Origin: an uncultured Candidatus Saccharibacteria bacterium
Lineage (GTDB): Bacteria; Patescibacteriota; Minisyncoccia; Phycocordibacterales; DATDWN01
Length of the DNA stretch: 64,000 nucleotides
Assembly: GCA_964576615.1 (NCBI GenBank)
Contig: CAZNUU010000001.1
Span: 95,309-159,308, forward strand
Reading direction: 5' to 3'
Below, in pieces: positions 1,172 to 23,347 of this stretch. The notes below the pieces were generated by a model. The model was not told the origin of the DNA and searched no databases. It saw only the letters and a program-made list of their open reading frames with translations. The position numbers were made by a program, and so were the translations under genes. How positions within the stretch are numbered: the first letter of the stretch is position 1; each line of letters begins with the position of its first letter.

Positions 1172-2155
1172 TTACTTGGAGTTCATCATCTTGAGATAGC
1201 TGAGGATGTTCTGCACAGCTATCGTCCCCTCCGCCGAGGCCGAGGCGAGACGTTTGATGGAACTGTGCCTCACATCCCCCGCCGCGAAAACACCGGGAAT
1301 TGAGGTCTCAAGAAAGAGCGGAGAGCGACTCGCAAGATTCCACCAGCCTGTGGGAATATCGTTCCCAGTGCAGACAAACCCCTTCTCGTCGCGGGAAAGT
1401 ATCCCGGCCATCCACTCGGTGTTGGTCACCTCTCCGATACAGATGAAGAGGTGCTGGCAGATGATCTGGCTCTCGCCTTCCGGCTTCAAGACCAGAATTT
1501 TCTCGAGCTTGCCATTGCCGACTGCCTCTCGAATCTGACAGTTGTAGTGGATCCGGATCTTGGACTTCTTGATCCGGTCGATGAGATAGGCGGACATGCT
1601 GGCAGAGAGATCCGACTTCTTGATCAGCATGTGAACATCACACCCCGGCTGCTTGGAGAGGTGAAGTACTGCTTGTCCGGCGGAATTCGCTCCGCCGATG
1701 ACCACAGCTGCACCCTCAAACGGGTGAGTAAGCGGTGGTGAGCCGTATTTCACTCCCTTGCCCAGAAGATGGGCAATCCCAGGAACGTCGTCCAGACGAC
1801 GATGAGTCGCGCCGAGCGCCAGGATGACCGTCTTGGACGGAATGACAGTGCCGTCATCCGCAGTAACGAGTACCCTGCCGTCCGACTGCTTGAGGCTCAC
1901 GATATTGCACGGCCCCAAGAACTCCGTCCCGAACTTCAGCGCCTGGGCGATCCCGCGAGAAGCGAGCTCGGCACCTGTGAGACCTTCGGGAAACCCGAAG
2001 TAGTTCTCGATCGCTGAGCTCTCGCTCGCCTGACCTCCACAGCCATCCTTCTCTCTTTCGATGAGAAGGGTCTTCAAACCCTCCGACTCTGCAGTAATGG
2101 CCGCGCCAAGTCCGGCCGGACCACGACCCACAATCACAACGTCATAGTTGTCCAT
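1172..2155 (-). CDS. Thioredoxin-reductase-family FAD/NAD(P)-binding flavoprotein lacking the CxxC redox centre (possible ferredoxin-NADP reductase type)
   Basis: N-terminal VVIVGRGPAGLGAA FAD motif, a GGQ...IENYFGFPEG segment and a second VVIGGANSAG dinucleotide motif. Where TrxB has CATCDG this protein has GSPPLTHP. GC-rich, with GGAGG SD and a TTGACT-17-TAATCT promoter upstream. Confidence 0.8.
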   Translation of the reverse strand: MDNYDVVIVGRGPAGLGAAITAESEGLKTLLIEREKDGCGGQASESSAIENYFGFPEGLTGAELASRGIAQALKFGTEFLGPCNIVSLKQSDGRVLVTADDGTVIPSKTVILALGATHRRLDDVPGIAHLLGKGVKYGSPPLTHPFEGAAVVIGGANSAGQAVLHLSKQPGCDVHMLIKKSDLSASMSAYLIDRIKKSKIRIHYNCQIREAVGNGKLEKILVLKPEGESQIICQHLFICIGEVTNTEWMAGILSRDEKGFVCTGNDIPTGWWNLASRSPLFLETSIPGVFAAGDVRHSSIKRLASASAEGTIAVQNILSYLKMMNSK

Positions 2156-2250: not shown

Positions 2251-3834
2251 ATGTCTGAAGAAAATTTACCAAAGACTATATCTGGTGCTACGCCAGAAAT
2301 TCCATTTCAGATGTATGAAGTTTCTGGTCAAGACACGATTAGCCAACATGCTTTCGAGAGATATATAAAAGACAGAGACCAGGATGAGAGTATTTCAAAA
2401 AGTGCGGAAACACGAGAAGAAAAAAATTTACTTAAAAAAATAGACGCAGTCAATTATGCAAATAATTTTGGCCTTATTTCAGAGAACTTAGATAATCCGG
2501 ACCCTATTATGCAAGAAAGGGCAGCTGAGCTTATAGCTTTTATTCCCTCGGATAAACGACTTGAGCTTATAATGCGTTTCCTTGAAAAAGGTCCGAATGT
2601 ACAGGTTGCGGCACTTGAAGGTCTTCAACATTTAAGCCCAGAAGTGTGGGAAAATATTTTACCAGTGATCAAGGATAGAATTGATCTTGGACTAAATAGT
2701 AATGAGGAAGAAAAAGTGATAATGGCAATAAAAATGATTCACTATATATACAGTAGCGATGATACATCAAAATTTATAATGCGGGTTCTGACAGATAAAA
2801 TTGAGTACTGGGAATTATTAAGAAGTTCACTTTTTGATGCAAACGAGGAAGTAAAAAATTTTATCGACGAACTAGTGTTGAAAAAACTGAATTCAAAAGA
2901 CAATTCAGATAAAAAAATGGTAGTGGGTTTACTTCAGTTTGGACATGCCGAGAAAATACTTGAAACTATAATGAAAGTCACATTAGATGATGATGAATTT
3001 GCTTTTAAAATGTCCACTATAATATTTTCAGCTCCAGAAAAGGATCAGCTTAAATTTATTAGGACCATATTAGATAGGGACATTCGCTATCACGAACTGG
3101 CCGCGGAACTCATTAGTTACATGCTTGTAAATGCTCCGGTGGAAGAGGATGAACCTGAATTTAATGCAGTTTTAGATGAGACTATGAAAAAAGCCAAGGA
3201 AGATCTACTAGATGAGAACGTAGAAGTTCGACGAACTGGGGCTAGGATAGCAGTCTTACTTGATCCCAGTAATGACAATGAATTGACGAGCTTGGCAATT
3301 GAGAGAGGAGTCAGCGATGAGCTAGTTAAAGCACCTATTTATGCTAACACTGGGGTTAATAAACAGAAATTCTTTCGGGCTGATTTTTTCAAAACTGGAT
3401 CAGAGACAACTTTATTAGGGGGAGAACTAAAAGATAAAACTATTGTAAGACATATTGAACCAGGGGCATTCCTCACCTGGCAGAAGTTATTTGAGAATTA
3501 TAAATTGTGGCAGGACAATGGTTTCGATTATGTCCCGATCGAGCCGATTCACTCATATAGACTTGATAATAATGGTCTGGTAGATGTTTTTTGTGGAGTG
3601 CTTGATCTTAATCTAGAAGACTGGATGGAAAGAAGCAAGGCACATAATAAAGAATTGACAGAGCAGATGGAAAGAATAACAGGGGTATTAGAAAAGTCTG
3701 GCATAGAGCATGGCCACCCCCATGAGAAGAATTTTTGTTTGCGCTTTTGGCGAGATTCAAGCGGACAAGTAGATTTTAATAGAATCCCCAGACTTTATTT
3801 GATTGATTTTGATATGGCTGCATCACTACCTTAA
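2251..3834 (+). CDS. Hypothetical protein: helical-repeat N-terminus plus C-terminal atypical kinase-like motifs
   Basis: AT-rich native-style gene. The C-terminus has HGHPHEKNF, resembling the HGDxHxxN catalytic loop of APH/CotS/RIO kinases with Asp replaced by His. It is followed by LYLIDFDMA, a DFG/IDFD-like motif. Confidence 0.6.
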   Translation: MSEENLPKTISGATPEIPFQMYEVSGQDTISQHAFERYIKDRDQDESISKSAETREEKNLLKKIDAVNYANNFGLISENLDNPDPIMQERAAELIAFIPSDKRLELIMRFLEKGPNVQVAALEGLQHLSPEVWENILPVIKDRIDLGLNSNEEEKVIMAIKMIHYIYSSDDTSKFIMRVLTDKIEYWELLRSSLFDANEEVKNFIDELVLKKLNSKDNSDKKMVVGLLQFGHAEKILETIMKVTLDDDEFAFKMSTIIFSAPEKDQLKFIRTILDRDIRYHELAAELISYMLVNAPVEEDEPEFNAVLDETMKKAKEDLLDENVEVRRTGARIAVLLDPSNDNELTSLAIERGVSDELVKAPIYANTGVNKQKFFRADFFKTGSETTLLGGELKDKTIVRHIEPGAFLTWQKLFENYKLWQDNGFDYVPIEPIHSYRLDNNGLVDVFCGVLDLNLEDWMERSKAHNKELTEQMERITGVLEKSGIEHGHPHEKNFCLRFWRDSSGQVDFNRIPRLYLIDFDMAASLP

Positions 3835-4476
3835 ATCAAACATCCACCACTCTTCACTTTGATGAGGAATCATGTGAGAATGAACTATTCTATAGTCATA
3901 CTCTTTAACCATACTATGAAATTTTTCAATCGAACCACCGATGTTGACCCAACATGCGTAAATAGTTCCTTCTTTATTTAAATAATTTTTGGCAACTTGC
4001 AAAAAACGACGAAAAGTATTGAACCCGGGATCATAGATTGCTTTTTCGCGCAGCTCATTTACAGGAGCATCAATAGAGGGTAAATAAGCAACGATTGAAT
4101 CAAACTTTTCGAAAATATTTTGAAATAGATCCGATTCAATTACTTTAGATTTTGTGACACTATATTTTTTAAAATTTTCGTTTGTGTTCCCACATGCCCA
4201 AGGGTTAATGTCGACTGCCACCACTTCTCTTTCACCAGCCTGGTGAGCAATAATGCCTTGAATTCCTGTTCCCGACCCCATGTCCAAAACTTTCTTATCT
4301 CTGTACATTAAAATATTTTTTGGAGAGACACCTTCTATTTTTGAAATCTGCCTAGGCACAAACACATTTGGAAAAACAACGAGTCTAAATCCACGATAAA
4401 TTATTTCTTGCTCTTTATCGTAGAAGTGCTTGTGCACTTGTGCACCTTTGGCTGATCGTGTTCTTACCTGCGTCAT
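3826..4476 (-). CDS. Class I SAM-dependent methyltransferase (small-domain MTase)
   Basis: VLDMGSGTGIQGI motif I, VVAVDINP post-I and FDSIVAYLPS motif IV-like segment. Confidence 0.75.
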   Translation of the reverse strand: MTQVRTRSAKGAQVHKHFYDKEQEIIYRGFRLVVFPNVFVPRQISKIEGVSPKNILMYRDKKVLDMGSGTGIQGIIAHQAGEREVVAVDINPWACGNTNENFKKYSVTKSKVIESDLFQNIFEKFDSIVAYLPSIDAPVNELREKAIYDPGFNTFRRFLQVAKNYLNKEGTIYACWVNIGGSIEKFHSMVKEYDYRIVHSHMIPHQSEEWWMFDLR

Positions 4477-4532
4477 CCAACTAATATTACCTATGACTGA
4501 AAAAAGTCAAACATTATTCACGTATCTAACAA

Positions 4533-4561
4533 TTGACATACTTATAAAAATAGGTTAGTAT
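4533..4561 (+). promoter_or_regulatory. Sigma70-like promoter for the 4583 cassette gene
   Basis: TTGACA (4533-4538), a 17-nt spacer, then TAGTAT (4556-4561). GGAGG SD at 4574-4578. Confidence 0.4.
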
Positions 4562-4582
4562 CTTCAACAGATTGGAGGCAAG

Positions 4583-4882
4583 ATGAATCTGAACGGCAGA
4601 AGTTACAAGGCCGGGAAGGTGACTTTCAAGGTCCTCGAGGGTGAGGACTACCCGGCAAAGAAGGTGAGCGATCGATACGCCAAGATCCTCAACATCAAGG
4701 CGGGGTGTCTGGTTGGGGTGAAGTTCCATTCGACAGTAATTACGAACATCACCTACGACAAGGGTGTTGTACGCCTCAATAAGATCGAGGTGGACGGCAA
4801 GGTGATCGACAAGGCGGGCAAGATTTCCGAAGCTCTCGGCGTCGATGCACCCCTCATCCCCTACGACCTCTCGGAGCTCTAG
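4583..4882 (+). CDS. Hypothetical protein (GC-rich cassette gene)
   Basis: GC-rich ORF with consensus promoter, GGAGG SD and a hairpin spanning its stop codon. No known motif. Confidence 0.5.
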   Translation: MNLNGRSYKAGKVTFKVLEGEDYPAKKVSDRYAKILNIKAGCLVGVKFHSTVITNITYDKGVVRLNKIEVDGKVIDKAGKISEALGVDAPLIPYDLSEL

Positions 4883-4898
4883 TGAGCTCCACTGCCCG

Positions 4899-4932
4899 AG
4901 GCTGACCGGTATACCCGGCCAGCCTTTTTTAT
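4899..4932. terminator. Bidirectional intrinsic terminator between convergent genes
   Basis: GGAGCTC-TAGT-GAGCTCC hairpin at the stop, then a GGCTGACCGG...CCGGCCAGCC hairpin followed by a T-run (4925-4931). Confidence 0.5.
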
Positions 4933-7900
4933 TTAATGATCACGCCACCTTGATTTCTTTTCATACGCCTAAATAGTTTGTAGCTTTTCTTGGGCCTGTA
5001 CCTTACAAAGAGATTATCGATTACCTCATCATCTGGTATTGCCTCAATGCTGCCATGTTCCTTCTTCATCCCCTCCCCCTTGGCAATAATCTCTTGCTCC
5101 TCAACATATGTCTTTTGATCTTCCTCGTTAAAATCGATATGAAACTGCTTACCGCCTAGTGAAAAATCAGTAATTAGTCTTCTAGAATCTTTTAACCCTG
5201 CACCTTTTTTCGATTTCTTCGCTCGTCTTTTAATTTTCTCGCCTTTCTCGTTTACCTCGATAAGCTTAAAACTATTAGGCTCTCCTTTGGACATGTGGCC
5301 AACAAAGTCCTCGACAGAAAAATTATCATCAATATTTTCAACTTTCTCCAAAGTAATGAATTTAGACTGATAGGATTTCCCGACAACAATCTTCCCGGTA
5401 TAGTCCTCGACCACCTTAAAACCAAGCACTCTTATGTTTTGCTTAAAACCTTCCCAATCGCTAAAGTCATCTGTGTGAACAAGATCAATAATAGCTCTCC
5501 CCCCAACTTTCAAAACTCTGGACATCTCCTTCAGAACTTCCACCCGATCAATCCTACCTTTTGTCGGTTTGAAGTCAAAATAATGCAATGCGAATGTTAG
5601 ATTTAGATAATCAAATGAATTATTTTCGAACGGCAAACGAGTTAGCTGCCCTATGACCCTTTTCATACCTTCTTCTTTTTTAAAATGAGCTGGGTTAATA
5701 TCTGTGGCTGTAATTCTCCCAGCCAGTTCATCCCCACTATGCCTCTTTAACATCTCCGGTCCCGATGCTAGATCTAATATGCTTAAGCTATCAACGGGTT
5801 CGCCATTGTCTTCTATAAACTTTTTCAGAACAGTAGTAGCTATTCTGTTGGCATTCGACTGATAGTTACGTCTGCCTAATTCTTGGTAGGCATCCGCATA
5901 CTCTTCTCCTCTGGTCATCTCTTTACCTTGGATATCGAGATAACGCATGAATTCTTTTTCTCCAATCTCCCAAACTTCGCCGAATATTTGCATCAATTTT
6001 TCCCACTTGTTGAAATAATACCTTGCGAGTTCCGGATTAATTTCCTTATTCTCATCTTGATCTTCTGTCTTTTCAATTATTTCTCTCTCAAGTTCTGTCA
6101 AAGGAACTCCGCGGAGCAATTTTTCCACAGCTCTCTTTTTCATGGCGATAAATTGGTGAATCCCTTCTTCAATAGTACCCTTACCAATAAAAGTTTTGCT
6201 CTCGAGCTCATGCTTCAATCCGGGACGATAAACACGAGCTAGCTGTTGAGCTTTGATGTATTCAGTCCATGGCTCGTTATAAAAATAAACCATCTCCCCA
6301 CCTGAAAAATCAACTCCTTCGCTAGCTGTTTGACCTGAGACAACAACCAACATTTTTTCATCTGAACTATTCAACCTATCTTGAATTTCTTGTCTTGTCT
6401 TCTTTGAAGTATTCTTTTCACCCTCGATAATTTCAACATTTACATTCGGTGGTAAATTTATTTTTTCAATAATTGAACCGGGCCCTCGAATTATATTTTC
6501 AACATAATCATTAACGAACATAACAATTTTGTCGACCTTTTGAAAATCATCCTGTAATTCCTTCTCTACTCTCTTAGCTTTTGAGCAAATCACCCCTGGG
6601 GTCGGATCTACTATTTCGGGGTTCATTAGAAACTGGCGTAGTTTTTGGATTTTTTGTGTCGCGGTAAGCTCATCCTCTTCTTCCAAAATCGCCCCATACA
6701 CATCTCTCTCTAATTCAGTTAAATCTACATAAATTGGTTCATGTTCTATATGCTGGGGCATCTCAACACTCTCTCTCAAACTTTTCATCTGCATTCTAGG
6801 AACAAGCAGACTTCTCAGATCTATGAGATCACCGTTTATAATACTCCTGACCATCTCAGAGTTTTTCATTTCATTAAATTTCTCCGGATAAAGTAATCTT
6901 AGTATTAGAGCAACATCCTCGATCTTGTTTGGTACTGGAGTACCAGATAAAATAGCTAAGTATTTATCGTCCCCTTCAATTTTCTTAGCTAAAGAAAGCA
7001 GGAGCTGCGACCTTACCCCCTCATTTACATTTTTAAACTTGTGAACCTCGTCTACAATTAGCATACCTGGGTCAAGCTTCATGAGCTCAGTGGTATACTC
7101 CTCTGTCATTCTTTCGTGGGAGATAACTATATAATCATAAGTTGATGTATCCCGCTGTAGATCTTCTATACTTTCTACAACTAAAACGCTTGGATTCTCT
7201 CCAGGTTTAAAATAGGTGTGCAGATAACCTTTCTTTTTTTTATTATCCACCCAAGTTGAAACTACATTGCTAGGTACAACAACTAGAGCCTGTTTAATAC
7301 CGAGTGATTCTTTGGTTAAGATCGCAGACGCACTTTTGCCGAGACCCATTTCATCCGCGATTAGTATTTTCTTTTTATCTGAAAGCTCTCTTATATTTAT
7401 ACGCTGGTTTAGATCTGGAAAATCTCTCCCCTCTTTCAGTCCTAGAACTATTTTCTCTGGTTTTTCTATAGACAATAGTCCTGAGTAATACTTTTCAAGT
7501 TCAGTGATAACAAAATCGATATCTGTACTTCCTAGATTCGCTGACTTTTGTCTTACCCCCCCGATATATTCCTCAATGATTTCCTTGTCTTGCCTGTCTT
7601 TATTTTTTCTCTTTTCGAGGTGGTAATATTCCAGACAAGCTTCTTTCATTATCTCAAGAAGCCCTTCGCGTAACTTCGGATCTTTGACAAACTCAACTGC
7701 AATTGGTAAATCATCCACTCTGAAGCCATGCCTTACAACCAAAAAATCTCCGATGTAGTCCGCCATAAGACTTTTAACATATTCCTCTTTGACTGGAAGA
7801 CCTCGAAACTCTGGCCTAAATTTGTATAGAATATCTAGGACTTTGGATGGACCAAAGAGCCCGATAAGACTTCTAAACTGCTGGGCAGTTAAGCTATCGC

Positions 7901-9089
7901 CTTTTTCTACATCTTTTAACAGATCCTCTAAATCGGTTTCTAATTTTTTATTCTTATCTTCTTTATTTAGTTCATCTTTCCTTAGGCTTACTTGTTCTCT
8001 AATAAAATCAGCTAGGGGTTTATGTATAAAAAGAGTTACTGTATTATTCTTTTCCTTATTGTAATAGAGTTTTGCTTGTCCTGGAAAGTTTGCATCAGCT
8101 TCTGCAGCTATCCTTTTAATTACTTTCTTTTTTATGGATAGTTCATCAGCTAAATTGTCAATCGAAATAGAACCCTCGGGAGGAGCCTGCATTTCCTTTA
8201 TATCAATTTTAATTTTATCGATGAGTTCAGGTGAGAAATAAGTATGCACACCGTTTAAATCCCGGTGTTTCTTTTCTAAACTTTCGTCCTTTTCAGTATA
8301 TTTTTTGGCAGCCTTTGTTATGGTCGAATAAGATACAGCAAGTTCTTCAGCTAAATCAGGCACGGTTCTCCAACCTTCCGGTGGTGGGGGATATTGCCTA
8401 AAGTTCTCTAATATTTTTTCAACTAATTGATTGGAATAAAGCTCATCGCCCTGACCAATATCCTGCGATGTTCTCTCCAGAAACCAATCTGGGTGTGAAT
8501 GTTTATATGTCCTAGCAAATGAACGGATTGAGTTATCCGAGATTGTGATCCCTTCACTTGCTAATTCCTCTTTTATCTCTACAGCAGTTTTCCATTTCTG
8601 AAACTCCCGCACTTTTTCTTTTATTATCTCCTCTAAATCTGGATGAATATATTCATGAGTAGTTTTTCCTTTTATGTCTTTACGAGTTAAGATCCAGTCA
8701 GGATTGGATTTTCTGTATGGTTCGATTATCTTATTTATCCAGTTGTCACTAATACCAAGTCTATTGGCAATTTGATTTTTGGTATGCCATTTTTCCTCTA
8801 TTTCTTTTATTTTTTCTTTTTTTTCAATTTCACCCTTGAACCTATCATGGAGTACTTCTGCTAACTCAGGTGAGACGTATTCACTTTTTTTCCCATCCCT
8901 GGGTGTAAATTTTCTAAAATATTCTTCATGTTCAGATCTATACTCTTCGGCAAGTCTTGCTACTTTGGTAGGGCTAATTCCCCATTTTTTAGCTAATTCG
9001 ATCACGGTGTACCAATTTTCTGGAGGTGGTAAACCTTCCATATAATCCAGAACTGAAACATTTTGTGGAGTTGGAAATCCTTCTGTCAT
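4929..9089 (-). CDS. Multidomain protein: 4-5 repeated HTH-like modules, SNF2-family helicase, class I SAM methyltransferase and a basic C-terminal tail
   Basis: SNF2 motif I LIADEMGLGKS, motif II LIVDEVHKF, motif III LSGTPVPN and helicase-C QQLARVYRPG. MTase motifs ILDLASGPE, TATDINP and LPFENNSFDYLNL (Methyltransf_11-like). The N-terminal third carries repeats of roughly 60 aa of the form W-T-x3-LA-x2-LG-IS...HPDW. Confidence 0.85.
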   Translation of the reverse strand: MTEGFPTPQNVSVLDYMEGLPPPENWYTVIELAKKWGISPTKVARLAEEYRSEHEEYFRKFTPRDGKKSEYVSPELAEVLHDRFKGEIEKKEKIKEIEEKWHTKNQIANRLGISDNWINKIIEPYRKSNPDWILTRKDIKGKTTHEYIHPDLEEIIKEKVREFQKWKTAVEIKEELASEGITISDNSIRSFARTYKHSHPDWFLERTSQDIGQGDELYSNQLVEKILENFRQYPPPPEGWRTVPDLAEELAVSYSTITKAAKKYTEKDESLEKKHRDLNGVHTYFSPELIDKIKIDIKEMQAPPEGSISIDNLADELSIKKKVIKRIAAEADANFPGQAKLYYNKEKNNTVTLFIHKPLADFIREQVSLRKDELNKEDKNKKLETDLEDLLKDVEKGDSLTAQQFRSLIGLFGPSKVLDILYKFRPEFRGLPVKEEYVKSLMADYIGDFLVVRHGFRVDDLPIAVEFVKDPKLREGLLEIMKEACLEYYHLEKRKNKDRQDKEIIEEYIGGVRQKSANLGSTDIDFVITELEKYYSGLLSIEKPEKIVLGLKEGRDFPDLNQRINIRELSDKKKILIADEMGLGKSASAILTKESLGIKQALVVVPSNVVSTWVDNKKKKGYLHTYFKPGENPSVLVVESIEDLQRDTSTYDYIVISHERMTEEYTTELMKLDPGMLIVDEVHKFKNVNEGVRSQLLLSLAKKIEGDDKYLAILSGTPVPNKIEDVALILRLLYPEKFNEMKNSEMVRSIINGDLIDLRSLLVPRMQMKSLRESVEMPQHIEHEPIYVDLTELERDVYGAILEEEDELTATQKIQKLRQFLMNPEIVDPTPGVICSKAKRVEKELQDDFQKVDKIVMFVNDYVENIIRGPGSIIEKINLPPNVNVEIIEGEKNTSKKTRQEIQDRLNSSDEKMLVVVSGQTASEGVDFSGGEMVYFYNEPWTEYIKAQQLARVYRPGLKHELESKTFIGKGTIEEGIHQFIAMKKRAVEKLLRGVPLTELEREIIEKTEDQDENKEINPELARYYFNKWEKLMQIFGEVWEIGEKEFMRYLDIQGKEMTRGEEYADAYQELGRRNYQSNANRIATTVLKKFIEDNGEPVDSLSILDLASGPEMLKRHSGDELAGRITATDINPAHFKKEEGMKRVIGQLTRLPFENNSFDYLNLTFALHYFDFKPTKGRIDRVEVLKEMSRVLKVGGRAIIDLVHTDDFSDWEGFKQNIRVLGFKVVEDYTGKIVVGKSYQSKFITLEKVENIDDNFSVEDFVGHMSKGEPNSFKLIEVNEKGEKIKRRAKKSKKGAGLKDSRRLITDFSLGGKQFHIDFNEEDQKTYVEEQEIIAKGEGMKKEHGSIEAIPDDEVIDNLFVRYRPKKSYKLFRRMKRNQGGVIIK

Positions 9090-9283
9090 AAAATTGATTT
9101 TAGCACATTTTTAGCATGTATTTGTTCGAAATGATTTACTGTCGAATTAATGTTGACAAAATCTGTAAAATATGCTAGTGTTGCCCCAGCACTGCATTCC
9201 TGCAGTCAACTCGGGCATAAGACGCCTTAGGCGCACTGCTCCCGGGTATCGTTCGTTAACATCACCCAACTAGGAGTGATCGT

Positions 9284-10414
9284 ATGGGCAAGAGTTCGTT
9301 CGTCAACATGACGCATGCGGCTCTGGACGAGACACCCGCGAAGGAAATCATTCTTCGTGGCGTCGTCTCGCCGGCATCGCTTGGCTCACTGATGGTCGAT
9401 GACTATCAGCGAGAAGCGGCACCGCTTTCGTCGCTCAAGGGCATGCTCAAGGCGTTTGAGCAGGGCAGAACCCTGCCGGACATCGAGCTGGGCATGCGCG
9501 GTCAGCGTTTCGAGGAGAGCAAGACCGAGTCAGGTCTTTTTGTCCTCATGGACCCCGTCTACATCGTCGATGGGTTCCAGCGCGTCACCGCCGGGATGCA
9601 CCTTCAGGCTACCAAGCCCGAAGTGCCGATCCGCCTCGGTGCCACGATTCATTTCGGCACCACCAAGGAGTGGGAGTCCGAGCGCTTCCACATCTTGAAC
9701 ACGCTTCGGATGAAGGTCTCGGCCAACGTCCTCCTGCGCAACAAGCGGGAGACGAGCGAAGCCATCGCCATGCTCTACAGCCTGTCGACGACGGACAGGG
9801 GCTTCGCCCTCCACGATCGCATCAGCTGGAGACAGCGGATGACACGTGGGGAGCTCATCTCGGCGCTTTCCCTGGCAAAGGTCACGGGGTTGCTCCATTC
9901 TCACAAGGCGCCGAGTCGCCGTGTGCAGATGGACGAGCTCGTGCCGGCCCTGGACAGGGCTATCGAGATCTTCGGTTCCCACATCATGCGTGCCAACGTC
10001 GCGACGTTCTTCTCGCTCATCGACGAGTGCTGGGGCATCAAGCAAGTCCAGTATCGCGAGGGAGCGATCTACATGCGCGGCGCATTCCTGCACGTCCTGG
10101 CCCGGATTCTCTCCGATCACCACGACTTCTGGCGCGAGACCGATGAAAAGCGGCTCCTCGTTGAGGCACCGCTCCGTCGCAAACTCGCCCAGTTCCCGAT
10201 CCACGACCCGGGCGTCGTGAATCTGGCAAGCTCCGGTGGCAAGTCGAAGGACATTCTCTACGACCTCATCCGCAACCACATCAACAGTGGCAAGCGGTCG
10301 AAGAGACTGACCTGTCGTTACGGCGAACGGAGCGTCCCGGGTCTCGACGACGAGACGGATGATCAACCGGAATCGTCTAGCGTCGAGGAGCCGGCGACCA
10401 TCGTCTGCTCGTAG
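9284..10414 (+). CDS. DUF262/DGQHR-like (ParB/Srx-fold) domain protein, GC-rich cassette gene
   Basis: DDYQRE and IVDGFQRVTAG segments match the QR and DGQ(Q/H)R signature pair of DUF262/DndB-like domains. AGGAGTG SD, TTGACA-17-TAGTGT promoter and a perfect terminator. The many overlapping opposite-frame ORFs are high-GC artefacts. Confidence 0.6.
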   Translation: MGKSSFVNMTHAALDETPAKEIILRGVVSPASLGSLMVDDYQREAAPLSSLKGMLKAFEQGRTLPDIELGMRGQRFEESKTESGLFVLMDPVYIVDGFQRVTAGMHLQATKPEVPIRLGATIHFGTTKEWESERFHILNTLRMKVSANVLLRNKRETSEAIAMLYSLSTTDRGFALHDRISWRQRMTRGELISALSLAKVTGLLHSHKAPSRRVQMDELVPALDRAIEIFGSHIMRANVATFFSLIDECWGIKQVQYREGAIYMRGAFLHVLARILSDHHDFWRETDEKRLLVEAPLRRKLAQFPIHDPGVVNLASSGGKSKDILYDLIRNHINSGKRSKRLTCRYGERSVPGLDDETDDQPESSSVEEPATIVCS

Positions 10415-10428
10415 AGTGAAGGTGATGA

Positions 10429-10462
10429 GGGCGTTCACATCGCGTGAACGCCCTTTTCTTTT
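10429..10462 (+). terminator. Intrinsic terminator
   Basis: GGGCGTTCAC-ATCGC-GTGAACGCCC perfect 10-bp stem followed by TTTTCTTTT. Confidence 0.7.
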
Positions 10463-10521
10463 GCATAAAATAATTGACAAAGTTTTAGGAAAGGAATTTA
10501 CTTAAGAAAGAAGGAGGTGCG

Positions 10522-10839
10522 ATGGACATCGACACCTTGATCATGATCGCTGCAAGTTACATGGAAGACGATGAGTGGGATGAATTCGTCAATCTCGTTC
10601 AAGATCCTCAGCTGCTAGTCGCTGCTGCTCGTGTACTGCTTCTCGTGGACAACCTATGGGCTAAAGGGAAAATATCTGCACCTGTCGCCCAGGCATATTA
10701 CACCTCAACCGGACTCAGTGCAGTCTCAAAGGAAAAGCTTCGAACTAAATTTCTCCAGAATGAATACCTGGGAGAAAGATCAGGGAGAGGCGGAGCTGAA
10801 GAGACTCTCGTAGCTGCTGAACCGAAACTGGTGTGCTGA
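10522..10839 (+). CDS. Hypothetical protein
   Basis: GAAGGAGGTG SD directly upstream. TTGACA-17-TTTACT upstream. Moderately GC-rich. No motif recognised. Confidence 0.5.
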   Translation: MDIDTLIMIAASYMEDDEWDEFVNLVQDPQLLVAAARVLLLVDNLWAKGKISAPVAQAYYTSTGLSAVSKEKLRTKFLQNEYLGERSGRGGAEETLVAAEPKLVC

Positions 10840-10870
10840 AGGGCGGACGGTCCGAAGACCGTTCGCCTTT
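10840..10870. terminator. Hairpin terminator shared by convergent genes
   Basis: GGCGGACGGT-CCGAAG-ACCGTTCGCC followed by TTT. Confidence 0.5.
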
Positions 10871-10882
10871 GATGTTTATAAA

Positions 10883-11455
10883 TCAATATGCTCTCTTTCC
10901 GTAACTTCTAAACTTCGCTTTCCATCGTGCACGTCTTTCTGGAGAAATTTTTTTCATTGGTCCACATTTCTTTATCTTTGGAGAAAAACCAGCAAACCAA
11001 AGTATACCGTCTCGAATTTCATTTACATTATCGCCAAATAAAAACCTGGCAACCCAAGGTGGTGAATCCGATGTGACGAAGACGGTAGCGGTTCGTCCTT
11101 TTAATAACCTTTTCCACAACATACCGCTCGGCATAAACTTGTAAGCCATGCCAGGCAACCAGGCACGATCGAATAGGCCTTTGAGGAGTGCTGGCATAGT
11201 TGACCACCAAGAAGGGTAAACAATAACCAAGTGATCACACCATTTCACATCTTCTTGGAATTTTAACAAATCTGGCTCAAGCTCCTGGATAACTTTGTAA
11301 CCATGATGGAGAATTGGATCGAATTTCATATCACCCAGATTAGTTCGCCTGACTTCATGACCAGATTCGCGTGCACCTGCAGCATACGAGTCAGCAAACT
11401 CGCAGCACATACTAATAGTGTCAGGGTGACCTAGGAGAACAAATACTTTTTTCAT
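10883..11455 (-). CDS. NAD(P)H dehydrogenase (quinone), flavodoxin-like fold (KefF/MdaB-type)
   Basis: VLLGHP near the N-terminus, DLLKFQEDVKWCDHLVIVYPSWWSTMPALLKGLFDRAW signature. Confidence 0.8.
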   Translation of the reverse strand: MKKVFVLLGHPDTISMCCEFADSYAAGARESGHEVRRTNLGDMKFDPILHHGYKVIQELEPDLLKFQEDVKWCDHLVIVYPSWWSTMPALLKGLFDRAWLPGMAYKFMPSGMLWKRLLKGRTATVFVTSDSPPWVARFLFGDNVNEIRDGILWFAGFSPKIKKCGPMKKISPERRARWKAKFRSYGKRAY

Positions 11456-11503
11456 TTACTTTATTTTATCTAATTCTGGAAAACTGGTCTATGGAAAACT
11501 TTT

Positions 11504-12322
11504 TTGAGGTGCTATATTTTAAATATGTTTAAATGGAGATACCTGGTCGGACTGCTCCTCTTCGGTGCGGCTTCACTTACTGGACTGGTCTATTACTATC
11601 ATATCGACCCACAACTACTCACTACACTATCTTTTTACGAAAACCTAGCGAACCCTTATGTGAGAATCGTTCGAGTACAGGAGGGCCTGCGCAAGGAACA
11701 AATCGCGGATTTGATGGCAGAGAAGTTGGGTTGGGATGATGAGCAAAAACTGGAGTTTATAAACGCCCATCTGGCCTTAAATAGTACAAATCTAGAAGGT
11801 CACTACTTCCCAAAAACATATATGATACCGAAGGACGCCGATCCAATTGGTGTCACTGCGACAATGCTTCACGAATTTAGCACAGAGACCTCCAAGATTT
11901 CCAAGCCTAAAAAAAGCGACGTGGTAAATCAAGATACAGTTTTAAAAATTGCCTCGATAATTCAACGAGAAGCTGCTGGCAAAAGTGATATGAAGCTTAT
12001 CTCCGGCATAATTTGGAATCGCCTTTTTAGTGGAATGAAACTCCAAATTGATGCAACACTTCAGTACGCCAAAGGCACAGAAGAAAACGGCTGGTGGGAT
12101 GAAGTGAATTCAGATGACAAAAATATAAACTCATCCTATAACACATACCTTCACGCTGGGCTTCCTCCATCCCCCATCGCAAACCCAGGCTTGGCTGCTA
12201 TCGATGCGGCATACAACCCTCAAAAGACCAGCTGCCTATTTTACCTTCACGACAAATACAAGAGAATTCATTGTTCAGCTACCTACAACGGCCACCTGAA
12301 AAATATTGCGAGGTATTACTAA
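11504..12322 (+). CDS. mltG: Endolytic murein transglycosylase MltG (YceG family)
   Basis: N-terminal TM helix, EGHYFPKTY, ASIIQREA and YNTYLHAGLPPSPIANPG motifs. Confidence 0.85.
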   Translation: MRCYILNMFKWRYLVGLLLFGAASLTGLVYYYHIDPQLLTTLSFYENLANPYVRIVRVQEGLRKEQIADLMAEKLGWDDEQKLEFINAHLALNSTNLEGHYFPKTYMIPKDADPIGVTATMLHEFSTETSKISKPKKSDVVNQDTVLKIASIIQREAAGKSDMKLISGIIWNRLFSGMKLQIDATLQYAKGTEENGWWDEVNSDDKNINSSYNTYLHAGLPPSPIANPGLAAIDAAYNPQKTSCLFYLHDKYKRIHCSATYNGHLKNIARYY

Positions 12323-13613: not shown

Positions 13614-13628
13614 GTTTTGTGTGTTTTG

Positions 13629-13701
13629 TGGACCCTACCAGATTCGAACTGGTGACCTCCTCATTGCAAATGAGGCGCTCTACCAACTAAGCTAAGGGCC
13701 C
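13629..13701 (-). tRNA. tRNA-Ala (anticodon TGC)
   Basis: Canonical cloverleaf on the minus strand. Acceptor stem GGGCCCT/AGGGTCC with the G3:U70 Ala identity pair. Anticodon loop TTTGCAA, T-loop TTCGAAT. 73 nt, CCA not encoded. Confidence 0.9.
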
Positions 13702-13768: not shown

Positions 13769-13839
13769 GGGCCCATAGTTAAGTGGTATAACACATCCAT
13801 GGCATGGATGTAGCGGGGGTCCGATTCCCCCTGGGTCCA
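13769..13839 (+). tRNA. tRNA-Ala (anticodon GGC), T-loop slightly atypical
   Basis: Acceptor GGGCCCA/TGGGTCC with G3:U70. Anticodon stem CATCC/GGATG with loop ATGGCAT. T-arm GGGGG-TCCGATT-CCCCC has C at position 55, which is unusual. Confidence 0.7.
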
Positions 13840-13840
13840 C

Positions 13841-13905: not shown

Positions 13906-14607
13906 TCAAGCGAGTGGGATGAGCCCACGTTCGCGGAGCGTCTTAACCAGGTACAGGCCATCCTCCAGACTGCCGACTGGTCTCTGCGGTTCGCCGTCGT
14001 GCTCCGTGAGCATGGCGTAGAGAGACCGATCGGGCACCGGTCCCCACAGACCGTGCTCCGGATGGTAGTTCCACCAGTTGCGACCGCAACTGCAGGTGAA
14101 ACACTTTTTCGGGAACTGTCCTCCCCCGGTCATGGACTCCCACGGAAACGGTGCTGAGGCGTTAGCCCTCAAGAGTTCCTGACAGACACACGGCCCGGTA
14201 TACGCGAGCTTAGGACCGTCGTATCTCTTGACCGGTCTCGATTCTACGACCCCGTGTTCGTCCTTCGCAGAGGACATGTAGAGACCGATTTGGGTCTTCA
14301 CGAAAGCTTCGATCGCGTCATCGAAGACCTTCGCGAGCGTGAACATCGGGCGTCCAGCCTTGTCCTGCCACGAGAAGTGCCCTCGCGGGTCGTGTTGGAC
14401 ATCCCAGATGATGTCATCGGATTCGCGACGCCCCTCAGCGACCCATCTGTGGCTTGAAGCGCAGTTCTCGGCGTAATCCATTGTGTAGATCTGGCCAGAG
14501 ACCTTGGTAGTGCCCTCAGCTTCTGCGAAGGTCTCGATGCACAAACGCTGGGCCGTATAGACAGGTGAACCGAGGGGCTCTTCTCTGCCCATCCACTGAT
14601 AAAGCAT
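13906..14607 (-). CDS. Hypothetical Cys-rich protein (GC-rich cassette gene next to the tRNA-Ala genes)
   Basis: TTGACA-17-TAGTCT promoter and AAGGGAG SD on the minus strand. Cys cluster CVCQ...CFTCSCGRNWW. No family recognised. Confidence 0.5.
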   Translation of the reverse strand: MLYQWMGREEPLGSPVYTAQRLCIETFAEAEGTTKVSGQIYTMDYAENCASSHRWVAEGRRESDDIIWDVQHDPRGHFSWQDKAGRPMFTLAKVFDDAIEAFVKTQIGLYMSSAKDEHGVVESRPVKRYDGPKLAYTGPCVCQELLRANASAPFPWESMTGGGQFPKKCFTCSCGRNWWNYHPEHGLWGPVPDRSLYAMLTEHDGEPQRPVGSLEDGLYLVKTLRERGLIPLA

Positions 14608-22491: not shown

Positions 22492-22881
22492 GTGTTGAAA
22501 AGACACAAACGTGCATGGCGTGATCGAATCGGGCAGAAGTTCGTCGATCGACTGCCGGAAACGGTGGTCAAGGTCGGAAGTGACGAGTTCACTCGCCGTG
22601 ACCTAGTGATCGACGTTGAATCAGCCAACTTCCAGGCGGCTGCCGCTCTGGACGAGGCGATTCAGCACTTCCATCCGAAGGGCGTCGTGGAAGTCTCGAA
22701 GAGAGTCGATCAGCACATGCTTCGCGCCCGTGGCTACATCGGAGATACCGCCATCTTCGTTTGGTGCGGAATTCTCGAAGCCAAAGGCGTGAACGTGGAT
22801 CGCTGGCTCGACCAGGACTTCACCGAACGCAACAAGGAACGCAGGCGTAGACGCCTCAAGCGTCGCAATCGCAAGCGCTGA
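22492..22881 (+). CDS. Hypothetical protein with Arg/Lys-rich C-terminal tail
   Basis: GC-rich, GTG start, SD present. C-terminus NKERRRRRLKRRNRKR. Confidence 0.5.
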   Translation: MLKRHKRAWRDRIGQKFVDRLPETVVKVGSDEFTRRDLVIDVESANFQAAAALDEAIQHFHPKGVVEVSKRVDQHMLRARGYIGDTAIFVWCGILEAKGVNVDRWLDQDFTERNKERRRRRLKRRNRKR

Positions 22882-22957
22882 CCGCCGAACATGAAGCCGC
22901 CGAACAGGCACTTCAGGTTCGGCGGTTTTCATATATAAAATTTAGTTTACAAGCCTT

Positions 22958-23347
22958 TTGTACCATGCTAGTTTGATTTACGGAGGGCTCATGCCTAAAA
23001 TCGATATTCTGTTCGTCGTGGCTCTGGCACTTTACTCAATCGCGATCTGGTCAGCCAACCAGACCCGGATTGGCCTTTCACCTTTGAAGGTCATCGTCTT
23101 CGGACTCGCACTTGTCGCTGACTACACCGGCACTGTTGTCGTCTGCATGACGGCAAAAAACTGGTCTTGGAACGCTCATGCCATCCTGGGCTTCACTGCG
23201 CTAGGAATCATGGTCGTTCACTTCCTCATTGCTTTCTGGGCTGTCCTAGGAAACGAGGATGCCAAGTGGAAGTTCGAGAAGTATTCCATCCCAGCCTGGT
23301 TCCTGTGGCTAATCACATTCCTGAGTGGCATCTTTGTCCAGAGGTGA
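22958..23347 (+). CDS. Hypothetical four-helix membrane protein
   Basis: Four hydrophobic helices. Moderately GC-rich. Confidence 0.5.
   Translation: MYHASLIYGGLMPKIDILFVVALALYSIAIWSANQTRIGLSPLKVIVFGLALVADYTGTVVVCMTAKNWSWNAHAILGFTALGIMVVHFLIAFWAVLGNEDAKWKFEKYSIPAWFLWLITFLSGIFVQR

Follow-up and report, generated by a model that had tools for sequence, protein, structure and literature searches.

Proteins of the DUF262/DndB type are known as components of DNA-modification and restriction systems that several genes encode. A QR pair, the pentapeptide DGQ(Q/H)R and FxxxN make up the published DGQHR/DUF262 signature (PMC4619093). In DndI and SspE, the arginine pocket around DGxxR binds and hydrolyzes nucleoside triphosphates (NTP), with the R87A substitution of DndI as a precedent. 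DndB is described as repressing the dnd operon in an ATP-dependent manner, and a survey of ParB-CTPase-fold proteins found that a DndB-like protein bound both ATP and GTP; parB-like genes are also common as orphans, without a parAB operon (PMC12704722).

Here we describe a gene related to these systems in a 64,000-nucleotide (nt) stretch of a contig from an uncultured Candidatus Saccharibacteria bacterium (CAZNUU010000001.1), the whole of which we call the window. It encodes a 376-amino-acid (aa) protein and lies next to a divergent gene for a giant SNF2-methyltransferase (MTase) fusion. The original prediction, made from the sequence of the window, had taken it for a DUF262/DndB-like gene of a GC-rich two-gene cassette, functionally paired with the SNF2-MTase. 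The reading that we favor, with moderate confidence, is that of a mobile gene for a DndB-like, NTP-gated nucleic-acid-binding protein, controlled through a structured leader RNA and not coupled to the SNF2-MTase. The family shows that the nucleotide-binding core of DUF262/DndB proteins also circulates on its own, encoded by a lone gene without a nuclease, among phages and among Patescibacteria, whose genomes are reduced and in which every retained gene is informative. The coding sequence is laid out as follows.

9284 to 10414, forward strand: coding sequence of 376 aa, as read from its open reading frame (ORF), with DDYQRE at residues 39-44 and IVDGFQRVTAG at residues 94-104
Domains of the product: ParB/Srx-type (DUF262/DndB-like) domain, residues ~1-140; helical C-terminal domain, ~147-335; disordered acidic tail, ~353-376
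Motifs of the product: QR, residues 42-43; DGFQR, 96-100; FxxxN, 135-139; basic patch NSGKRSKRL, 334-342

Fold, motifs and kinship of the protein

The ORF was present as announced, with DDYQRE and IVDGFQRVTAG, and all three signature motifs of DGQHR/DUF262 were found in the window protein in the correct order, the pentapeptide having F at its third position, which varies across the family. Across an alignment of 40 family members (A1), invariant residues included Y41, Q42, R43, P65, D66, R72, D96, G97, Q99, R100, F135, and N139. The AlphaFold2 model built on this alignment (predicted local distance difference test, pLDDT, 89.3; predicted template modelling score, pTM, 0.82) showed an N-terminal alpha/beta domain, an all-helical C-terminal domain and a disordered acidic tail. 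When compared with the PDB by Foldseek, it matched best the ParB-like PadC (prob 0.99), and then BrxU (7p9k, of the GmrSD family), pNOB8 ParB-N and sulfiredoxins. A structure search of BFVD, which contains predicted viral structures, gave 23 matches at E ≤ 1e-3, the best of which (1.3e-8) was an unnamed protein; many of the named ones were GmrSD-N/DUF262, "sulfur modification protein" (DndB-like), "DNA-sulfur modification-associated" or ParB/Srx proteins.

Profile matches to the same families were obtained below threshold. Scanning each of the 40 members separately yielded weak GmrSD_N matches in 23, with a best E of 1.1e-4; they aligned residues ~37-125 of the protein with profile positions ~11-78 and scored 12-18 bits, against a gathering cut-off of 33.2. 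Weak DndB matches were found in seven of the 40 (best E 8.5e-3), aligning profile positions 99-164 with residues 92-168 at 11-14 bits, against a cut-off of 29.1. Weak GmrSD_N/DndB matches were also seen in seven of eight phage copies, and PHROGs gave a weak ParB-like match of the window protein (E 0.19). The A1 profile had no match among PDB sequences at E ≤ 10, and when 1.84 billion cluster representatives were searched by profile, the matches listed were strong family members, with no bridge to DUF262. Neither DUF1524, HNH nor any other nuclease domain was matched in the window protein or its relatives.

The fold is thus predicted, by the model, to be of the ParB/Srx type, and the protein to be DUF262/DndB-like at the superfamily level. 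The original assignment stood at this level, on the fold, the motifs and the weak matches of the relatives. It did not stand at the level of the profiles: the search with DUF262, DndB and DGQHR models gave no match for the window protein, which formally speaks against the assignment, and its relatives were sub-threshold. Since the window protein matched neither family and all its relatives remained under the curated cut-offs, we assign them, within the ParB/Srx superfamily, to the DUF262/DndB branch, as a divergent sister family that belongs neither to PF03235 nor to PF14072. This protein family was previously unmodelled; its ~500 clusters have no Pfam, NCBIfam, PADLOC or PHROGs model and are therefore annotated only as "hypothetical."

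Among the described proteins close to the family is DndB (PF14072/TIGR03187): both show a ParB/Srx-type core, QR, a DGxxR-type loop, FxxxN and a helical C-terminus, and both are devoid of a nuclease domain. DndB, however, regulates the dndBCDE phosphorothioation operon, whereas the window family never stands beside dndCDE or another conserved partner. Also, the DGQHR pentapeptide of DndB is replaced by DG(L/F/Q/W/V)QR in the window family, which remains under the family cut-off, gives no NCBIfam match at E ≤ 10, and is further set apart by its acidic C-terminus and its structured leader RNA. The N-domain of GmrS/DUF262 proteins (GmrSD, BrxU, SspE, and DndI; PF03235) has the same fold and the same motif order, but these enzymes have a DUF1524/HNH nuclease fused or adjacent, and the window family has neither. 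In the DGQQR of PF03235, the first Q is replaced by F in the window protein, and the relatives reach 12-18 bits where 33.2 are needed. Canonical ParB and ParB-CTPase proteins (PF02195, PadC, and pNOB8 ParB) share the N-terminal fold, but the GERRxRA box, a match to the ParBc profile, a parA neighbor and a helix-turn-helix (HTH) domain were all missing from the window protein.

We also observed that, in nearly every homolog, the C-terminus is an acidic tail with a terminal -AA (...EEDDEDTKAA, ...DESEEQAA), at a position corresponding to residues ~345-376, and that a conserved basic patch, NSGKRTKRL, precedes this tail. The window protein ends in ...EEPATIVCS instead. An -AA terminus calls protease degrons to mind.

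A structured leader RNA in front of the gene

The gene appears to form a self-contained expression cassette, in the order promoter, structured leader RNA of ~100 nt, coding sequence and intrinsic terminator. The leader of the window, hereafter type A, and its flanking signals are as follows.

9153 to 9181, forward strand: promoter-like element, with -35 TTGACA at 9153-9158, a 17-nt spacer and extended -10 TGcTAGTGT at 9173-9181
9191 to 9206, forward strand: hairpin 1 (HP1), ACUGCA-uucc-UGCAGU, from the minimum free energy (MFE) fold; predicted to lie at or near the transcript 5' end
9207 to 9249, forward strand: type A core (covariance model R1), with stem P1 formed by CUCGGG (9210-9215) and CCCGGG (9241-9246)
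Inside P1, forward strand: CAUAAG at 9216-9221, invariant; HP2 at 9223-9233; ACUGCU at 9235-9240, of which ACUGC(U) is near-invariant
9261 to 9280, forward strand: HP3, AUCAC...GUGAU, from the MFE fold, with CCCAAC and the Shine-Dalgarno (SD) sequence AGGAG in its loop and 3' arm
9272 to 9276, forward strand: SD AGGAG, 7 nt upstream of the ATG of the gene
10427 to 10463, forward strand: intrinsic terminator, a 12-bp stem (7 GC pairs) at 10427-10455 and then the T-run UUUCUUUU

The gene had been said to have its own consensus promoter, SD and terminator. The SD at 9272-9276 and the terminator at 10427-10455, which closes a one-gene transcription unit, were both found. As for the promoter, its -35 is perfect, but its -10 is weak, both being read from the sequence, and the element was not called by a consensus promoter scan. 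The promoter is probably real nonetheless, because most homologous loci have a TTGACA as well, equally far ahead of the leader.

Folding 9183-9290 at MFE recovered all leader elements unaided (-37.9 kcal/mol, z -2.2). Model R1 matched the window leader with 44.1 bits (E 1.7e-8), and searching 1.06 Mb on both strands gave 18 matches at E ≤ 0.002. All 18 were on the sense strand and directly upstream of homologs, including the one at locus L050, which was absent from the seed alignment. A further 0.63 Mb, mostly viral loci, returned nothing under E 0.18. In the model-fitted alignment, 86.6% of the cells were paired, and changes on both sides were observed in 9 of the 11 pairs. The covariation score was 0.576, as compared with 0.252 in shuffled alignments, none of 500 reaching the observed value, and it was at most 0.176 when the pairing partners were slid. 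The G-U pairs were consistent with a sense reading only, and HP2 varied in length from 12 to 23 nt between the two conserved loop strands; these two features point to an RNA rather than to a double-stranded DNA operator.

The outer hairpins were judged by folding each sequence, as the MAFFT alignment of the leaders (A2) was too poor outside the core for pair counts. A hairpin of differing sequence occupied the HP1 position in 16 of 16 type A loci (mean z -2.2 vs shuffles). Hairpins with differing stems that contain the SD, like HP3, were found in most type A loci, with weak support (mean z -1.0).

By comparative sequence analysis, the type A leader is a conserved structured RNA, probably cis-regulatory, located in the 5' untranslated region, on the sense strand, and with compensatory changes. 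It was previously undescribed. None of the 4227 families of Rfam 15 matched 9100-9320 at E ≤ 10, nor, at E ≤ 1, the regions that precede the gene in 17 related loci, and only two tRNAs were found in the window at the gathering score. In the literature searched, no leader or riboswitch was described for DUF262-type genes.

More distant homologs are preceded by a second motif, type C, GGGUU-GCUA-UCCC ... GGGA-GCUAA-AACCC, which has the same architecture as type A, that is, stem, conserved internal loop and stem. Its model, R2, matched ~30 loci, all upstream of homologs, with five matches outside the seed; 89.1% of the cells were paired, again in a model-fitted alignment, and changes on both sides occurred in eight of nine pairs. 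Type C was found neither in the window, nor in viral loci, nor in Rfam. The loci are given below; tandem copies were seen in L111, L114, and L053.

Type C loci: L023-L030, L033, L038-L042, L066, L070, L074, L091, L096, L102, L111, L113, L114, L125, L130

Leader type tracks the protein clade. Two more types were delineated by eye. Type B (L009/L057, L010/L058, L013, L005/L006, and L051) has a P1 enclosing GGCGCA-N-AUAAGUCGC, and type D (L034, L083, L087, L105, and L108) starts with UUGCACAUUGGAAAGC. In leaders of nearly all types, a hairpin is followed by the short element GUUCUU(Y)..CA. Incidentally, we noticed sub-threshold Hammerhead_3 matches in two type C loci, L091 (3801-3855, 30.8 bits) and L074 (2286-2332, 25.7 bits), as compared with a gathering score of 48.5; they lie ~0.9-1.05 kb downstream of the homolog.

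The leader probably controls expression of the 376-aa gene after transcription initiation. Most likely, the hairpin with the invariant CAUAAG/ACUGC internal loop, followed by the hairpin holding the SD, would act on translation initiation. As for the effector, we slightly favor autoregulation by the encoded protein over a small-molecule riboswitch, because the leader motifs are dedicated to the family and co-evolve with it. The leaders do resemble orphan riboswitch candidates and autoregulatory leaders: they covary, carry invariant unpaired nucleotides, sit between promoter and SD and serve one gene family, before which several architectures occur, some in tandem. Type A matches none of the Rfam models. 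A broader proposal would take all the leaders of the Patescibacteria copies, as aptamer-like RNAs, for a new multi-class riboswitch family that senses a nucleotide-derived or a DNA-damage- or infection-related small molecule and governs a single-protein, NTP-gated nucleic-acid surveillance factor moving between phages and ultra-small bacteria. It would cover at least two covariation-supported architectures, A and C, and the two seen by eye. The gene association gives no clear metabolite pointer for a ligand, and we consider this proposal quite improbable. Of all the results of this analysis, the leader RNAs are of greatest interest, and they can be tested directly. They are absent from Rfam. 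They offer an experimental handle, since whatever binds them, protein or metabolite, should show the stimulus to which the protein responds.

A solitary and mobile gene

Solitude of the gene was assessed on 134 related loci (1.2 Mb), which comprised 48 species-representative genomes, 80 metagenome contigs and the first six loci, with flanks of 3-10 kb. The neighbors on which the original prediction rested are the following.

4929 to 9089, reverse strand: SNF2-MTase giant, a fusion of HTH, SNF2, Helicase_C and class-I S-adenosylmethionine-dependent (SAM) MTase domains; divergent neighbor
10522 to 10839, forward strand: 105-aa ORFan, with its own TTGACA-17-TTTACT, SD AAGGAGG, and a terminator at 10839-10870

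The divergent SNF2-MTase was found, at a distance of 194 nt, and so was the 105-aa ORF with its strong SD, AAGGAGG. This arrangement lent itself to the idea of a two-part system, in which the protein would sense or regulate and the SNF2-MTase would remodel and modify, with the 105-aa ORF as cassette partner. The idea gained some appeal from the weak matches of the giant to the DrmD, BrxH, and DpdE helicases, from the mad2 match of a 216-aa MTase encoded nearby, and from the fact that DUF262 domains are known to act with modification systems (PMC4619093). Yet, homologs of the SNF2-MTase, of the 105-aa ORF, of the 216-aa MTase and of a 527-aa protein also encoded in the window were found by tblastn in none of the 134 related loci. 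All-against-all clustering revealed no ORF family common to more than 6 of the 49 genome loci, that is, no conserved neighbor. Likewise, no DUF1524/HNH nuclease gene was a conserved neighbor in these 49 loci, and no dnd, ssp, or dpd gene was present in the three homolog-bearing contigs that we looked up. The three contigs offered unrelated contexts: alaS and ribosomal protein genes in one, pentose-phosphate genes and type IV secretion system pilins in another, and radical-SAM, SRAP and AcrVA2-like genes in the third. Moreover, a GC content at third codon positions (GC3) of 0.80 for the gene as compared with 0.34 for the SNF2-MTase points to separate origins, and the giant has an MTase domain of the UbiE/Methyltransf_11-like type, which is not a recognized DNA MTase family. 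The proposed functional pairing is largely refuted by this missing co-occurrence, and we hold it to be very improbable. Joining the gene to the adjacent SNF2-MTase was a tempting but wrong inference, which is now removed.

The 105-aa ORF fared no better as a partner. It matched only itself among 5.8 billion proteins, an ORFan as had been stated, and its pairing with the gene was conserved nowhere in the related loci. Because a terminator stands between it and the 376-aa gene, it is a separate transcription unit. Nor is it GC-rich: its composition is intermediate (GC 0.49, GC3 0.46), such that, in the announced two-gene cassette, a high GC is confined to the first gene and to the leader of ~100 nt in front of it. 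The gene itself is compositionally foreign, as had been proposed, with a GC of 0.61, as compared with 0.42 for the whole window, and the GC3 of 0.80 given above, as compared with 0.30-0.45 in its neighbors (SNF2-MTase 0.34, flavodoxin 0.37, and YceG 0.45). The conserved structured leader explains why the GC-rich island already sets in ~100 nt ahead of the start codon. Only short, chance-level inverted or direct terminal repeats flank the cassette. The gene is solitary, having no conserved partner across varied Patescibacteria contexts.

Homologs are numerous. We retrieved 226 of them (45-71% identity, ~355-377 aa, and all "hypothetical"), mostly from metagenome-assembled genomes of Patescibacteria, Paceibacteria or Parcubacteria, and the profile search of the 1.84 billion representatives gave 505 clusters at 50% identity and E ≤ 1e-3. 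Of 45 genome loci, 42 had a gene richer in GC than the flanking sequence; the mean excess was 0.09 and the largest 0.23, and gene GC correlated only partially with host GC (r 0.54). In IMG/VR, 34 viral contigs carried relatives of 36-52% identity, in which gene GC equalled flank GC (0.43-0.65). Their neighbors, annotated by eye from the sequences, were YqaJ-like exonuclease, RecT-like protein and a single-stranded DNA-binding protein with a DDIPF tail, as well as RusA-like, HNH and GcrA-like proteins, and these viral copies appear by sequence to sit in replication/recombination modules. In a neighbor-joining tree, the viral copies were scattered among the cellular clades. The gene family moves between phages and cells, and the window copy is best read as a horizontally acquired one-gene cassette. 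A tRNA gene lay within ~400 nt in a few loci and in most there was none, so that no consistent integration signal emerged.

Two observations concern the phage copies. In L158, L159, L161, L162, L163, and L169, a canonical ParB-like gene (GERRLRA) ends 6-21 nt upstream of the homolog (L163, ~6817-7980), which suggests a two-ParB-fold operon in that phage group. In L044 (6037-11260), binned as Terracidiphilus sp., the homolog is followed downstream by 17 tRNA genes. As such an array is typical of large phages, L044 looks like a large-phage fragment rather than an acidobacterial chromosome.

These data bear on whether the gene belongs primarily to mobile elements, as a DNA-metabolism accessory, partition-like or anti-defense factor acting on the element's own DNA. 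The Patescibacteria copies would then be domesticated or moron-like acquisitions that gained a promoter and a leader. The 34 viral contigs with native GC and replication/recombination neighbors, the ParB-like gene in one group, the tRNA array of L044 and the high GC of cellular copies relative to their hosts would all agree with it. On the other hand, the cellular copies, with their 45-71% identity, intact motifs and clade-specific leaders, point to a selected cellular function and not to a mere remnant, and the viral neighbors were annotated by eye. We regard this possibility as unlikely on the whole; it is compatible with the biochemical mechanism that we favor and differs on biological role only.

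That mechanism would run as follows. The pocket formed by QR, DGxQR and FxxxN would bind, and probably hydrolyze, a nucleoside triphosphate, which we infer from what is established for DndB, for the DUF262 domains of GmrS, SspE, and DndI (with the R87A substitution of DndI as a precedent) and for ParB-CTPase-fold proteins, as well as from Q99 and R100 being invariant. The nucleotide state would gate nucleic-acid binding via the helical C-terminal domain and the basic patch. From the succession of the NSGKRxKRL patch and the acidic tail one may speculate that the protein binds DNA and that the tail acts as an autoinhibitory mimic. By analogy with DndB, the protein would thus be an NTP-gated DNA-binding regulator or sensor and not a restriction nuclease.

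A different role would be that of a single-protein anti-phage or anti-plasmid effector, whose ParB/Srx core would carry an NTP-modulated nuclease or nickase activity on modified or foreign DNA. The domain kinship with GmrS, BrxU, SspE, and DndI agrees with such a role, and so does the behavior of the gene, which is sporadic, mobile, GC-anomalous and found in variable contexts. However, none of the 5027 PADLOC models matched, and an HNH/DUF1524 or other nuclease domain, which characterized DUF262 restriction enzymes have as a separate domain (PMC4619093), is missing. Many copies also lie in phage replication/recombination modules, an unexpected place for host defense genes. We consider a defense effector quite unlikely.

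Several points weigh against the NTP-gated regulator under leader control, which we nevertheless favor. With respect to the protein, the window copy had no Pfam, NCBIfam or PADLOC match even at E ≤ 1-10, the third position of the pentapeptide, F in the window protein, varies across the family (L/F/Q/W/V), and core-borne nuclease activity is reported for Osa and some ParB-like nucleases (PMC4619093). With respect to the leaders, the covariation alignments of types A and C were fitted to the model, which favors the structure, and specificity was tested on 1.7 Mb chosen for flanking homologs. Instead of an autoregulatory site, the leader could constitute a riboswitch, or else affect RNA stability or be targeted by an RNase. 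The phage copies were without leaders, as judged with R1 and R2, which indicates that the leader is not essential to protein function. Finally, transfer from phage to cell and the reverse are both possible.

Other features of the window

An antisense ORF of 316 aa (9530 to 10480, reverse strand) was considered as a gene and rejected. Its stops correspond to the sense codons TTA, CTA and TCA, of which the 376-aa gene has two only (9386 and 9530) and none past codon 83. In a GC3-rich gene nearly devoid of these codons, the antisense ORF is a by-product of codon bias, and similar antisense ORFs were open in 42 of 49 loci.

No sequence on record was identical to the window protein. Through the 105-aa ORFan, however, a 1.8-kb contig from another assembly (L055, SRR12313480) was found to be 100% identical to 10427-12263 of the window, its first base being the start of the terminator stem. 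This could be a strain or coverage break at the cassette edge; it is compatible with population-level variability and proves nothing.

One neighbor in common with the window was found, in one of the 134 related loci. In L017 (1371-1901), a flavodoxin-like gene with 61% identity to that of the window adjoins the homolog, in another orientation and order, which probably reflects lineage relatedness or coincidence.

Upstream of the 376-aa gene, 2251-9089 might be a defense or modification island. It contains the gene for the 527-aa protein (2251-3834), which belongs to no family, that for the 216-aa MTase (3826-4476), with its PADLOC mad2 match (E 1.7e-18), and the SNF2-MTase giant, whose HTH is weakly mad1-like.

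Other GC-rich segments were noticed. At 1172-2155 (reverse strand) lies a thioredoxin-reductase-like Pyr_redox_2 gene with a GC3 of 0.69, and 22492-23347 (forward strand) holds two 129-aa ORFs without Pfam match. At 13906-14607 (reverse strand), a 233-aa ORF with a GC3 of 0.70, also without Pfam match, adjoins two tRNA-Ala genes (13628-13701, reverse strand, and 13769-13840, forward strand). The genome appears to be a compositional mosaic.

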